Assembly (NCBI GenBank): GCA_910587225.1
Contig: CAJULT010000002.1
Location: 26,963 to 90,962 of the forward strand
Origin: an uncultured Christensenellaceae bacterium
Lineage (GTDB): Bacteria; Bacillota; Clostridia; Christensenellales; UBA1242
Reading direction: 5' to 3'
Length of the DNA stretch: 64,000 bases
Position numbers and translations under genes: made by a program. The notes under the pieces were generated by a model that saw nothing but the letters and a program-made list of their open reading frames with translations, searched no databases and had not been told where the DNA came from. How positions within the stretch are numbered: position 1 is the first letter of the stretch; each line of letters opens with the position of its first letter. Below are positions 25,691 to 29,828 of the stretch, piece after piece.

Positions 25691-27397
25691 CTACATACGC
25701 TCTGGAACTTCTATTGCAAGCACGTCTAAACCTTGAATCAACTTCTTTTTAACAAGTTGCAAAAGTGCCACATACCCTGCTTTAACTTTTGGATCTTGTT
25801 CATTAACAACATTGTGATTGTTATAGAAGGTTGAAAACGCACTCGCAAGGTCGTAAAGCGCTGAACAAAGATTGTTAAGGCTCTTTTCCCGATAGCATAC
25901 TTCATAGGAAGAGTTAAGCCTCAAAATTGCCCTCATAATATTGCGCTCTTCTTCGTTTCTAATACGTATACCGCCAGCAGGCGTATCCTGCGTCTTTTTA
26001 AGTATTGAGTTTATGCGAACTACTGTATACTGCAAATACGGGCCAGTCTTTCCCTCAAAGGACATAAATTTATCAAGGTCAAATACATAATCCTTTGAAA
26101 CATTATTGATAAGGTCGCCAAACTTCATAGCCGCAACCCCTATTTTAAGTGCGTCATCTTCGCTCGCACCATTTGCTCTTAGCTTTTCTCGTGCGCTTGC
26201 TGAAAGCATTTCAATAATGTCTTCAAGCTTAATCGTATCACCGCTGCGAGTTTTAAATGGTTTGCCGTCACTACCATTCATTGTTCCATTTACAATATGT
26301 ACAAGTTGTTGTCCCTCTGGTGATATGCCCGACAATTTACAAACTCTGAACACCTGAGTAAAGTGCATTTTTTGTCTACCGTCGGTAACATACTCAATTC
26401 GGTCAACATTTGGATAAGCAATATTTCTCATTAAGATAGTAGCAATATCTGTTGTCGCATACAATACCGCTCCGTTAGATTTTTGAACTAGACAAGGCGG
26501 CATTGGTGAATTTTCATCCTCTTTTGCGACATCGACAACCATTGCCCCCTCACTACGACGAAGAAGTCCCTCATTATTCAAAATATTGATTACATCCTGA
26601 CAATACGGATCGGCTGTACTCTCGCCATACCATAAATCAAACTCAGCACCAAGTTTGGAATAGTTTTGCTTAATTTCATTAACCGAAAGTTCACGAATGA
26701 CCTTATATATTTCATAATATGGGCTTTCGCGTCTTTGAATTTTGAGTGTCCAGCTTTCAGCTCTTTCTCTGAAATCCTCATCTTGCTGTTTTCTGGCACT
26801 TGCCTTAGGGTATGCTTCATTGAGGTCATCAATAGTTAGTGGTGCATTTTGCCCTTTCCCAAAGTAGCCATCAAGCTTTCCATCTTCATAAAGTTGAAGC
26901 TCGGTAAGCCCCATTTGAAGTCCCCAGTCACCAAGGTGAACATCGCTTATAACTTTGTCCCCCATGAGCTTATACAGTCTTTTCAAACTTTCTCCAATGA
27001 TTGCTGGACGCAAATGTCCAACGTGGAGTGCTTTGGCAACATTAGCCCCGCCATAATCCAAAATTACAAGTTCGCTTTTCACATGCTCCTTAACGCCTCC
27101 GCGTTCATTTTCCAAAAAGACTTGTCCAAGAAGTTCAAAAGCAAAGTCAGTAATTTTAATATTTATAAATGCAGGTTTTGCTACCGAAAACTCAAATGAA
27201 GGTTTATAACCTATATGATTTACGATTTCTTCTGCTAGTTCAAACGGATTTTTTCCAAATTTCTTTGCGAGCGCGAAGCAGTCATTGCATTGATAGTCGC
27301 TTCCCTCTCGCGCAGAAAAAGAACAACTAAGTTTTTCATCATAGCCCGCCGCCTTTGCACCATCAGTTAAAATTTGTTCAATTCTGTCCTTAATCAT
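25691..27397 (-). CDS. argS: Arginine--tRNA ligase
   Basis: 568 aa. HIGH-type motif HVGHLRPAIIGE, DALR-type C-terminal domain ending ...EVPERM. Overall ArgRS layout. Confidence 0.9.
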   Translation of the reverse strand: MIKDRIEQILTDGAKAAGYDEKLSCSFSAREGSDYQCNDCFALAKKFGKNPFELAEEIVNHIGYKPSFEFSVAKPAFINIKITDFAFELLGQVFLENERGGVKEHVKSELVILDYGGANVAKALHVGHLRPAIIGESLKRLYKLMGDKVISDVHLGDWGLQMGLTELQLYEDGKLDGYFGKGQNAPLTIDDLNEAYPKASARKQQDEDFRERAESWTLKIQRRESPYYEIYKVIRELSVNEIKQNYSKLGAEFDLWYGESTADPYCQDVINILNNEGLLRRSEGAMVVDVAKEDENSPMPPCLVQKSNGAVLYATTDIATILMRNIAYPNVDRIEYVTDGRQKMHFTQVFRVCKLSGISPEGQQLVHIVNGTMNGSDGKPFKTRSGDTIKLEDIIEMLSASAREKLRANGASEDDALKIGVAAMKFGDLINNVSKDYVFDLDKFMSFEGKTGPYLQYTVVRINSILKKTQDTPAGGIRIRNEEERNIMRAILRLNSSYEVCYREKSLNNLCSALYDLASAFSTFYNNHNVVNEQDPKVKAGYVALLQLVKKKLIQGLDVLAIEVPERM

Positions 27398-27984
27398 TTT
27401 ATCTCTCTCCTCTCTTCCATTGCCCTTGAAAGAGTAACTTCATCAGCATATTCAAGGTCGCTACCCATAGAAACGCCCTGAGCAAGTCTTGTAACTTTCA
27501 CGCCAAGAGGTTTTAAAAGTTTAGAAATATACATGGCTGTCGCGTCACCTTCAACGTCTGGGTTTGTAGCCATAATCACTTCTTCAACGCCCTCGCTGCC
27601 AACTCTATCTAAAAGTTCACGGATGCGAATATCATCAGGTCCTCTATTTTCAAGTGGGCTGAGCGTACCAAACAGCACATGATAAACGCCTTCATAGTCT
27701 TTCACTTTTTCCATTGAAATAACATCTTTCGGTTCTTTAACTACACACACAATTTTGTGGTTTCGACGTTTACATATAGGGCAAATCTCCTCGTCAGTGA
27801 AATTTCCACAGGTCTTGCAAAAGCCTATCTTGCTCTTTGCCTCTAAAATAGCGTGTGAAAAATTTTCCGCCCTCTGCTTTGAGCCTTCAATGATTGAATA
27901 GGCATAGCGTTGAGCGGATTTGTAGCCAACACCCGGAAGAGTGCGGAACTGTTCAATTAAACGTTCTATAATTTCGTTTTGCAT
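27394..27984 (-). CDS. recR: Recombination protein RecR
   Basis: HhH N-terminus (LPGVGYKSAQR), C4 zinc finger CKTCGNFTDEEICPIC and a Toprim domain. Confidence 0.95.
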   Translation of the reverse strand: MQNEIIERLIEQFRTLPGVGYKSAQRYAYSIIEGSKQRAENFSHAILEAKSKIGFCKTCGNFTDEEICPICKRRNHKIVCVVKEPKDVISMEKVKDYEGVYHVLFGTLSPLENRGPDDIRIRELLDRVGSEGVEEVIMATNPDVEGDATAMYISKLLKPLGVKVTRLAQGVSMGSDLEYADEVTLSRAMEERREIK

Positions 27985-27986
27985 CT

Positions 27987-28307
27987 TTACATCCCCGGAA
28001 TTTGTGGAATTTTCTCCTTTTCAGTTCTTTCAATTTGGCTAAGAGCGTCGTTAAAAGCAGAAATGATTAAATCTTCAAGCATTTCAACATCATCAGGATC
28101 AACCACTTCTTCTTTAATCTTTACACTTTTGAGCTTTTTATTGCCCATCATGACAACTTCAACCATTCCGCCGCCTGAACGCGCTGTAAATTCAGTTGCA
28201 TCAAGTTCGGCTCTTGCTCTTGCCATATCCTCCTGCATCTTTTGTGCTTGACGAAGAAGCCCTTGCATATTTCCGCCGCCAAAGCCTCCAAATCCACCGT
28301 AAGCCAT
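27987..28307 (-). CDS. ybaB: Nucleoid-associated protein YbaB/EbfC
   Basis: 106 aa. GNMQGLLRQAQKMQEDM...GGGMVEVVMMG pattern. Sits in the conserved dnaX-ybaB-recR order. Confidence 0.9.
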   Translation of the reverse strand: MAYGGFGGFGGGNMQGLLRQAQKMQEDMARARAELDATEFTARSGGGMVEVVMMGNKKLKSVKIKEEVVDPDDVEMLEDLIISAFNDALSQIERTEKEKIPQIPGM

Positions 28308-28316
28308 ATTAACCTC

Positions 28317-28646
28317 CTATTTTATGATGAGATACTGTCCCACCTTTCCTTTTAAATTTTCTATATCCTTTTCTTCATTACTTTTTTCGCGTACTCGATA
28401 GTCAAGCTTAAAACCTATATCTAGCCCCTGCCAACGCAGAGCATTTTCAATCTCCCGTCTTCCATCGCCCAAAAGTTGATTAAGCATACTATCTTTTATA
28501 TGCACAACAAGGTTGTTTTCTTCAATCGAAACATCAGTTATGTCCCCGCACGCTACATGCAGTGCAACAAATCGGTGTTCTTTCAAAAAGAGTACTACCT
28601 TGCCCCATATTGTTTTTGCACTAACCGACCCTTTTTTAGGCATCAA
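28317..28646 (-). CDS. DnaX C-terminal-domain-like ORF, in the -1 frame relative to dnaX
   Basis: 109 aa beginning TTG-ATG, 3 nt after the dnaX stop. IWGKVVLFLKEHRFVALHVACGDITDVSIEENNLVVHIKD resembles the C-terminal domain of full-length Firmicute DnaX, as I recall it. Confidence 0.5.
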   Translation of the reverse strand: MMPKKGSVSAKTIWGKVVLFLKEHRFVALHVACGDITDVSIEENNLVVHIKDSMLNQLLGDGRREIENALRWQGLDIGFKLDYRVREKSNEEKDIENLKGKVGQYLIIK

Positions 28647-28648
28647 GT

Positions 28649-29755
28649 TTAGTTTTTTTTTACATCCTCAGCCGGCATATCCAACATAGCAGAAAGTGCT
28701 AACGTTTCGAGCAGCAATCTCGGTGACAATGTATAACGAAGTTCATTTTCAGCCCCACCGAAAATTTGCATATACGAAATGAGTTTCTTTTCCTCAAACT
28801 TAGACGCTTGATAAGCATACTTTTCCATAACCTCAGTTGGAAGATTTAAAATATCATTAGGTTGTCTGCATGTCAATGCAATGAGTAGGTTTCTCGCATG
28901 CTTAGATAAATCTTTTACAAAAACGGACATGTTTTTACCGCTATGATCAAGTTCGTCAATAAATGAAAGCATTTCTCCCGCTTCCCTTGCAAGGAGAAGA
29001 TCATAAAAACGGATGAGGTTATCATAGTCAGTTCTGCCTAGCACCTTCAAAACAGCCTCTTTGGTAACTCCGCCTTCGCTATATGCGCAAACGCTATCAG
29101 CGATAGAAAGTGTATCTCTCACACTTCCCTCACCGCTTGCCGCGATGAGTTTAAGCGCCTCATCTTCATAGGAAATATTTTCGCTATCAAGGACTTCTCG
29201 TAAAAGTTTGGTCAAATTGTCTACTGACACAAGTCTAAAATCAAAACGAACGCATCTTGAAAGAATAGTCGCTGGAAGTTTGTGAACCTCAGTTGTCGCC
29301 AAAATAAATATAACATGAGCAGGCGGCTCTTCAAGTGTTTTGAGTAGCGCATTAAAAGCACTGTCGGTCAGCATGTGCACTTCGTCGATAATATATACCT
29401 TATACTTAGCATTTACAGGTAGAAACTTTACTTTTTCACGAATTTCACGAATATCATCCACGCGATTGTTTGAAGCCGCGTCAATTTCAATTACATTGAT
29501 GTCGCCTTCAAACCTCTTGCAACTTTCACATTGCCCGCAAGGTGAGCCATTTTGATTGTTTTCACAATTAACCGCCTTGGCAAGTATCCTAGCCACACTT
29601 GTCTTACCAATACCACGAGAGCCTGTAAAAAGATAGGCATGCCCAATCTTGCCACTTGCAATCTGATTTTCAAGTGCCTTAGTTATATGCTCCTGTCCTA
29701 TTACTCCTTCAAAGGTGGTTGGACGATATTTTCTGTAAAGTGCAAGGTGTTCCAT
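28649..29755 (-). CDS. dnaX: DNA polymerase III subunit gamma/tau (ATPase + domain III only, 368 aa)
   Basis: Walker A GSRGIGKTS, Zn module CENNQNGSPCGQCESC, Walker B IIDEVHML and sensor LSRC. Confidence 0.9.
   Translation of the reverse strand: MEHLALYRKYRPTTFEGVIGQEHITKALENQIASGKIGHAYLFTGSRGIGKTSVARILAKAVNCENNQNGSPCGQCESCKRFEGDINVIEIDAASNNRVDDIREIREKVKFLPVNAKYKVYIIDEVHMLTDSAFNALLKTLEEPPAHVIFILATTEVHKLPATILSRCVRFDFRLVSVDNLTKLLREVLDSENISYEDEALKLIAASGEGSVRDTLSIADSVCAYSEGGVTKEAVLKVLGRTDYDNLIRFYDLLLAREAGEMLSFIDELDHSGKNMSVFVKDLSKHARNLLIALTCRQPNDILNLPTEVMEKYAYQASKFEEKKLISYMQIFGGAENELRYTLSPRLLLETLALSAMLDMPAEDVKKN
28653..28661 (-). other. A9 homopolymer / A_AAA_AAA slippery heptamer at the 3' end of dnaX
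   Basis: Minus strand GAT GTA AAA AAA AAC TAA. The -1 frame reads AAA AAA AAA CTA AAC TTG ATG CCT with no stop and continues into ORF 28317-28646. Confidence 0.9.
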
Positions 29756-29807
29756 AATTTCTCCTAAGATGATTATACAATTCTTATTTCAAAAAGGCAA
29801 ACGATTT

Positions 29808-29828
29808 AAAGCGGCTGACAGCCGCTTT
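29808..29828 (-). terminator. Terminator hairpin after tpiA
   Basis: AGCGGCT-GAC-AGCCGCT 7-bp stem. The T-rich tract on the minus strand is interrupted (TTTAAATCGTTTG). Confidence 0.55.

Follow-up and report, generated by a model that had tools for sequence, protein, structure and literature searches.

We analyzed a 64,000-nucleotide (nt) stretch of DNA from an uncultured Christensenellaceae bacterium (GCA_910587225.1, contig CAJULT010000002.1, positions 26,963 to 90,962; from here on, the window) and focused on dnaX, which is interrupted at a run of nine A's. In the 0 frame, the last dnaX codons read GAG GAT GTA AAA AAA AAC TAA, with one C separating the A9 run from the stop codon. A small open reading frame (ORF) of 109 amino acids (aa) at 28317 to 28646 on the minus strand lies in the −1 frame relative to dnaX. 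A TGA at 28670 to 28668, located 6 nt 5′ of the run, closes the −1 frame, which is open from 28667 and overlaps the 0 frame by 19 nt in the window. Because the −1 frame is shut by this TGA upstream and the 0 frame by TAA, a switch of frame is confined to the frame-change interval listed in Table 1. Insertion of one A into the run joined dnaX and the small ORF into a continuous reading frame of 479 aa with the junction ...EDVKKKLNLMPKKGS....

Table 1. Features of the dnaX region, with positions as in the window
Feature	Position	Strand	Remarks
Whole predicted recoded dnaX gene (0-frame and −1-frame parts)	28317–29755	−	Tau-like product of 479 aa with one extra A in the mRNA
0-frame dnaX ORF, gamma-like product of 368 aa (ATPase, lid, domain III)	28649–29755	−	Ends ...EDVKKN, followed by TAA
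A9 slippery run (T9 on the plus strand), predicted recoding site	28653–28661	−	Coincides with three AAA codons of the −1 frame
Conserved C and 0-frame stop codon TAA	28649–28652	−	Motif A9-C-T-R-A-A
−1-frame tau-specific segment	28317–28652	−	Linker of ~15 residues (LNLMPKKGSVSAKT), predicted KH-like C-terminal domain of ~95 residues, stop codon
Frame-change interval	28652–28667	−	Bounded by −1-frame TGA (28670–28668) and 0-frame TAA (28651–28649)
Downstream genes ybaB (27987–28307) and recR (27394–27984)	27394–28307	−	Pfam YbaB_DNA_bd and RecR
Promoter-like site TTGCCT-17-TATAAT upstream of dnaX	29772–29800	−	Consensus match only; context

The Pfam domains PF13177, PF22608, and PF12169, which correspond to the ATPase, the lid, and domain III, span residues 20 to 358 of the 368-aa product, and this product matches the NCBIfam model TIGR02397 (dnaX_nterm) with an E value of 3e-133. 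An earlier note on this DNA had described dnaX as encoding only the ATPase and domain III, had placed a T9 tract with a stop just behind it and the small ORF in the −1 frame, and had predicted that a −1 change or an A10 mRNA would yield a fusion of about 480 aa. Domain content, coordinates, frames, and the length of the fused product all agree with that description. No second copy of dnaX was found within the 64-kb window.

The earlier note had also suggested that the 109-aa ORF is the C-terminal domain of DnaX, and our analyses of the protein family support this proposal. A homology search with the small ORF identified 330 relatives, and each of the best 120 of these 330 (50% identity or more) is a stand-alone ORF with a length of 79 to 124 aa. 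The family alignment A1 contains 20 invariant columns and indicates that the C-terminal domain is under purifying selection. Searching a profile built from 41 family members against 1.84 billion representative proteins returned 160 matches, most of which are stand-alone ORFs; the profile also matched the last ~105 residues of the single-ORF DnaX proteins P0249, P0256, and P0262 (488, 507, and 552 aa), which carry the Pfam domains I to III. An AlphaFold2 (AF2) model of the C-terminal domain had a predicted local distance difference test (pLDDT) score of 87.7 and the order of elements alpha-alpha-beta-beta-alpha-alpha-beta-alpha. In Foldseek, the best match to this model was DnaA domain I (probability 1.0; template modeling [TM] score 0.69), and other matches included the N-terminal domain of DciA and the E. 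coli tau C-terminus (5fku_E and 2aya), all with E values above 0.01. A KH-like fold is common to DnaA domain I, DciA, and DnaX domain V (PMC9912922). Because the profile matches DnaX C-termini and the predicted fold matches KH-like domains, these results support that the small ORF is the tau-specific C-terminal domain of DnaX. By analogy with tau of E. coli and B. subtilis, this domain is expected to bind, and thereby tether, the replicative polymerase and/or the helicase.

A profile search with the small-ORF family against the sequences in PDB gave nothing below an E value of 0.2. BapA was considered as an identity for the 109-aa ORF and rejected, the match being subthreshold in the family scans and treated as noise. 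Separately, a stretch of ~24 residues of the profile (positions 21 to 44, the LHVACGDI region) was matched six times by the 2,228-aa protein P0167, which is probably an unrelated repeat protein. P0003, a close homologue of the small ORF, carries the NCBI label "Acetobacter sp."; all other relatives are from metagenome-assembled genomes of Clostridia, and the genome behind P0003 is probably misbinned or mislabeled.

To place the arrangement in a broader context, we used one genome per species. The small-ORF domain is carried by 153 species, and the best 80 of these 153 loci were examined. Counts of gene layout refer to the 79 of the best 80 loci that include the upstream region, and counts of run length and base conservation refer to 80 loci, i.e., 79 relatives plus the window. 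As proposed in the earlier note, orthologous loci were aligned, and both the split and the A run are kept: in 77 of 79 relatives, dnaX stops directly after the run and the small ORF follows in the −1 frame, the two in-frame exceptions being L036 and L078. Of the 80 loci, 73 have A9 and 7 have A10, none has a shorter run, and the base after the run is C in 75 loci and T in the other 5. Among the seven A10 loci, five have A10 followed by T and are still frame-broken, and two have A10 followed by C and are in frame (L036 and L078). The −1 frame reads K-K-K-L over the junction in every lineage, and over all loci, the spacing between the run and the domain's conserved W-G-K motif takes only three values (42, 45, or 48 nt). 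In 14 loci, the −1-frame stop codon lies only 3 nt 5′ of the run and reduces the overlap to 16 nt; this places any shift at the run itself. In the A10-plus-T subgroup (L059, L067, L068, L071, and L079; ~2480 to 2493 in each), the junction reads CAA AAA AAA AAT TGA (TGA/TAA). Here, the run begins one codon position earlier, the −1 split is kept, and the phase is constant only at the 3′ end of the run.

The window species has A9 in 7 of 7 independent assemblies. Since 77 of 79 species and all seven assemblies share a frame-breaking run, we conclude that the split is real and neither an artifact nor a one-off pseudogene. In line with this, the exact 368-aa and 108-aa products are present in a collection of 15 billion proteins from which the fused 479-aa product is absent, and 118 of the best 120 closest DnaX clusters have lengths of 327 to 393 aa, with the other two at 480 aa. 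In more distant lineages with linkers of 90 to 130 aa, three stand-alone ORFs (P0227, P0216, and P0154) lie in the −1 frame behind dnaX, and their junctions consist of A9 or A10 followed by CTAA; frame 0 ends there with ...KKN and a stop, and frame −1 continues with KKKLI. Because these long-linker lineages keep both the A9/A10-CTAA sequence and the −1 frame, the predicted recoding site predates the clade of the window organism. The junctions in the distant lineages map to L088:725-734, L091:1878-1886, and L092:559-567, and their tau extension has a low-complexity linker.

Next to its phase, the run itself is strongly constrained. With the 80 loci aligned on the run, each of the nine A's has an information content of 2.0 bits, and the bases 3′ of it remain high (C, 1.7 bits; T, 2.0 bits; then R; A, 1.9 bits; A, 1.5 bits), while the third-codon positions flanking the run are near random at ~0.0 to 0.3 bits. 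Based on codon usage in these genes (AAA for 0.72 of Lys codons; A at 0.345 of 4-fold sites), NNA-AAA-AAA would be expected in 18% of genomes versus the 80 of 80 observed. Only 2 of the 80 loci have another run of nine elsewhere in the locus. In the window, A9/T9 occurs once versus 20.7 ± 6.6 times in dinucleotide-preserving shuffles, and this single occurrence is the only A/T run of at least nine in 64 kb. Thus, long A/T runs are avoided in this genome, with the dnaX junction as the sole exception, and the depletion suggests general selection against slippage-prone runs. The real significance of the run as a nonchance feature comes from its conservation across species.

We found no indication that the small ORF is started independently. 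In 22 of 80 loci, the sequence separating the run from the domain contains no start codon (ATG, GTG, or TTG); in 34 others, the start codons there are exclusively GTG or TTG, and 24 loci have ATG. A Shine-Dalgarno (SD) sequence was found before the candidate starts of the small ORF in none of the 80 loci; for comparison, an SD sequence was present at 62 of 79 dnaX starts and at 61 of 77 ybaB starts. In the window, the gene order dnaX-ybaB-recR represents the usual neighborhood, and ybaB has a clear GGAGG SD sequence while the −1 ORF has none. Because SD sequences are absent there and usual at the neighboring genes, and because 22 of 80 loci lack a start codon, the sequence data support that the small ORF is not an independent gene.

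A few relatives have the opposite polarity. A10 followed by C and a single in-frame gene of 480 to 500 aa were observed for L036, L078, P0374, and P0354/L095, and the in-frame homologues that read through the junction as ...VKKKLK... are L036, L078, L093, and L095. The A10-plus-C sequences map to L036:2476-2491, L078:2476-2491, L093:2301-2310, L094:2154-2163, and L095:2292-2301, and P0374 was found in two different Joint Genome Institute (JGI) samples. Near-identical stand-alone small ORFs were sought for L036 and L078, and none was found. L063, with A9, and L095, with A10, share 98.9% identity across 1.3 kb of dnaX; the coverage of L095 is only 2.4×, and the difference represents either a polymorphism of the run within a species or an error in the 2.4× contig. 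A count of A9 and A10 forms in metagenomes using the pattern GTA9N{0,2}CTGAAAAT was discarded as uninformative: the pattern is of low complexity, and among the matches listed, only 2 of 120 were dnaX junctions, both with A9. The opposite polarity of these relatives agrees with the remark that at an efficiency near 50%, a one-base change can swap the default product (Atkins et al. 2016, PMC5009743). The occurrence of A9 and A10 forms among relatives, and apparently within one species, would be expected if slippage gave both products from either template (PMC5009743).

Altogether, we consider it very likely that dnaX in these bacteria contains a conserved and obligatory recoding site. Standard decoding of an mRNA with the templated A9 run would yield the 368-aa gamma-like clamp-loader subunit, which consists of domains I to III and ends at the stop codon after the run. 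In the mechanism that we favor, the nascent RNA would realign on the T9 template, and the RNA polymerase would add one A (or 3n + 1). Ordinary translation of the slipped mRNA would then give the 479-aa tau-like subunit with its short linker and predicted KH-like domain, and the frequency of slippage would set the gamma:tau ratio. Transcripts in the third frame would yield another short product; this frame stops within 0 to 15 codons in all loci. An extra A or a tandem slip would generate the junction peptide DVKKKLNLMPKKGSVSAK..., and a slip on A_AAA_AAC would instead generate ...VKKNLNL....

The search for elements that could stimulate a shift of the ribosome was negative. RNAalifold detected no conserved RNA structure, with 0 pairs in the ~66 nt upstream and 0 pairs in the ~90 nt downstream of the run; the downstream folding energy did not differ from background (P = 0.07), giving no sign of a stem-loop stimulator. 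SD-like motifs in the 20 nt preceding the run are missing from 51 of 80 loci and are not conserved in position among the others, and an Rfam scan at E ≤ 10 returned only noise. A conserved upstream hairpin acting as a stimulator of slippage was rejected as well, as single-sequence folds show assorted hairpins and RNAalifold no shared pair. A run of ~9 or more A/T fills the RNA-DNA hybrid. Because stimulators of the E. coli type were not found, while a homopolymer of at least nine A's is conserved, slippage is the most likely mechanism, and transcriptional slippage is probably the main route to tau. The scarcity of A9 runs elsewhere in the genome also speaks for slippage, as avoidance of such runs indicates that the polymerase slips on them. 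The account as a whole, i.e., one recoded gene in which A9 gives a gamma-like product and polymerase slippage a tau-like product, is likely by our assessment; the anatomy of the locus, its conservation, and the identity of the C-terminal domain are what the data show, and what we infer are slippage itself, its level, and the roles of the products.

Several observations count against this account. The 80 genomes are related to one another, and counts from them are not independent events. Folding of the 60 nt upstream of the run is more stable than background, although no pairs are conserved. The Foldseek E values for the C-terminal domain are weak, and the 109-aa ORF had no Pfam or NCBIfam match, including to the Pfam tau domain V (DNA_pol3_tau_5), so that a relationship to models of the DnaX C-terminus was borne out by the C-termini of single-ORF DnaX proteins and not by a family model. 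Finally, two features would also suit the ribosome: the heptamers A_AAA_AAA and A_AAA_AAC are in phase in every locus, including the A10-plus-T group, and could give the same or nearly the same product during translation, and the 3′ end of the run has a fixed codon phase (AA[C/T], then the stop codon) that is not required by pure slippage. The fixed phase can be explained because the stop codon and the −1-frame Leu codon overlap. It is, together with the conserved adjoining stop, also what would be expected if the ribosome itself shifted frame, either by −1 programmed frameshifting on A_AAA_AAA or A_AAA_AAC or by sliding on the poly(A) Lys codons, possibly helped by the nearby 0-frame stop. 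In E. coli, dnaX relies on −1 frameshifting, and for this gene, frameshifting and slippage are interchangeable (PMC3711429, PMC5009743). However, neither a conserved downstream stem-loop or pseudoknot nor an upstream SD-like element nor an Rfam match was found in support of such a shift, A_AAA_AAA and A_AAA_AAC are far less shift-prone than A_AAA_AAG in E. coli (PMC5009743), and constraint spans all nine A's, with no run shorter than nine, although any heptamer needs only seven. We therefore regard a ribosomal shift as a minority possibility for the main route, although −1 frameshifting or sliding may contribute alongside slippage. The earlier note had pointed to an X_XXY_YYZ heptamer at this site; the heptamer is in phase everywhere, while the data favor transcriptional slippage without deciding between the mechanisms.

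The remaining explanations dispense with recoding, and we consider each of them to be much less probable. Two genuine genes could encode a gamma-only DnaX and a separate protein of ~108 aa, produced by coupling or reinitiation and joined noncovalently to the clamp loader; gene callers everywhere predict a stand-alone small ORF, and the ATG, GTG, or TTG codons described above lie shortly past the stop. Beyond the missing start codons and SD sequences, three points speak against two genes: the small ORF is locked to the run in frame and spacing, the −1 frame stays open between run and domain, with KKKL in all lineages, and the invariant A9 would be left unexplained, making this a very unlikely reading. 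A homopolymer error in the assembly had been named in the earlier note as the trivial alternative; in this reading, which also covers a sequencing error or a pseudogene, the true genome would have A10 and a single ORF. Homopolymers are error-prone, and A10 with an in-frame gene does occur, namely, in 2 of 79 species genomes and in two further protein clusters. Yet, the same break recurs in 77 of 79 species, whose genomes come from many studies and assemblers, and in every assembly of the window species, the A10-plus-T subgroup is also frame-broken, and the C-terminal domain is under purifying selection; these data refute an assembly error as a trivial explanation and leave it with almost no probability. 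Equally improbable is phase variation at the DNA level, in which A9 and A10 would flip at replication and tau would come from an A10 subpopulation. Such runs are hypermutable (PMC1088944), the A9 and A10 forms L063 and L095 are nearly identical, and the A10 form was found in two JGI samples, but the consensus is A9 in almost all species, the A10 contig L095 is poorly covered, and, by analogy with E. coli, the polymerase tether of tau is expected to be necessary in every cell.

Recoded dnaX genes with two ORFs have been described. Antonov et al. 2013 (NAR 41:6514, PMC3711429) reported, for Chlorobi, Bacteroidetes, and Verrucomicrobia, two-ORF dnaX genes that depend on recoding to make tau, with 17 genes from 12 genera, e.g., Flavobacterium, Cytophaga, Capnocytophaga, and Coraliomargarita, and mostly with A10 followed by G. 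That arrangement was a prediction from comparative genomics for which transcriptional realignment was proposed (PMC3711429), and it was repeated by Atkins et al. 2016 (PMC5009743). As in those genes, the 0 frame here gives a gamma-like product, the stop codon follows a poly(A) run, and the C-terminal part of tau lies in the −1 frame. Thus, the inverted polarity noticed in the earlier note, with a gamma-like 0-frame and a tau-like −1-frame product, stands as a description and is not new, having been described in 2013 in other phyla. Unlike the earlier cases, the genes analyzed here are from uncultured gut Clostridia (Bacillota); their run is A9 with C as the next base, the linker is of minimal length, and the tau extension is a single predicted KH-like domain. 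The site is kept in more than 100 species. We found no report in the literature of a two-ORF recoded dnaX in Firmicutes/Bacillota. B. subtilis is described as making only full-length DnaX (PMC13220808), and the gamma/tau split had been taken to be absent from Firmicutes models. The genes described here, with the domain in 153 species, represent a new, large Clostridia lineage of the already known two-ORF recoded dnaX.

Two slippage systems offer a comparison. As summarized in PMC1088944, T. thermophilus dnaX has an A9 run, ~50% slipped product, and two products (Larsen et al. 2000). On the basis of this summary, the Thermus gene and the gene in the window share the A9 run, slipped mRNAs (predicted for the window) that would place the downstream sequence in other frames, nearby stops in the alternative frames, and two products; tau is the 0-frame product in Thermus and gamma the product of slippage, while the polarity here is reversed except in the rare A10 relatives L036, L078, L093, and L095. 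In Shigella flexneri, mxiEa and mxiEb are joined by a nontemplated base at a run of 9 T/U (PMC1088944). The dnaX junction resembles mxiE in that overlapping ORFs would be joined only in mRNAs with one extra base at a 9-nt homopolymer and the longer protein would need slippage; unlike mxiE, which encodes a regulator, an essential replisome subunit is expected to depend on slippage here.

In E. coli, the −1 frameshift cassette of dnaX consists of A_AAA_AAG, an upstream SD sequence, and a downstream stem-loop, and we take this cassette to be Rfam RF00382. What the two systems share is dnaX itself, a slippery site rich in A, a shift toward the −1 frame, and a pair of products with domains I to III in common. 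In contrast to E. coli, the clostridial genes lack AAG, a conserved SD-like element, a stem-loop, and an Rfam match, and their polarity is inverted; unlike in E. coli, the mechanism here probably acts at transcription.

Outside the coding region, a G+C-rich hairpin, AAAGCGGCTGACAGCCGCTTT, with T runs on both sides is located at 29808 to 29828 between tpiA and dnaX. Judged by its sequence, this hairpin looks like the terminator of tpiA, with the promoter-like site of dnaX located after it.

A more speculative idea, to which we give little weight, is that the gamma:tau ratio is set at transcription and is tunable and that A9-to-A10 changes in the DNA flip the default product between strains. If so, slippage would depend on pausing before the conserved C (75 of 80 loci), the amount of tau would respond to nucleotide pools or growth state, and A9-to-A10 changes would create strains with heritably different clamp-loader compositions.

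More generally, the design reported here is reversed: the polymerase-tethering tau, which is expected to be essential, would hang on nonstandard decoding in a large clade of gut Clostridia. These bacteria would add another independent lineage with two DnaX products, which argues for a general function of gamma. Annotations of hundreds of metagenome-assembled genomes list DnaX as a protein of ~370 aa and the tau C-terminal domain as a "hypothetical" protein, and frameshift-aware annotation would fix both. The relatives with A9 and A10 offer a natural test of how readily a recoding site can switch polarity, and the 40-nt cassette without accessory structure would be a simple substrate for the study of slippage by a clostridial RNA polymerase.

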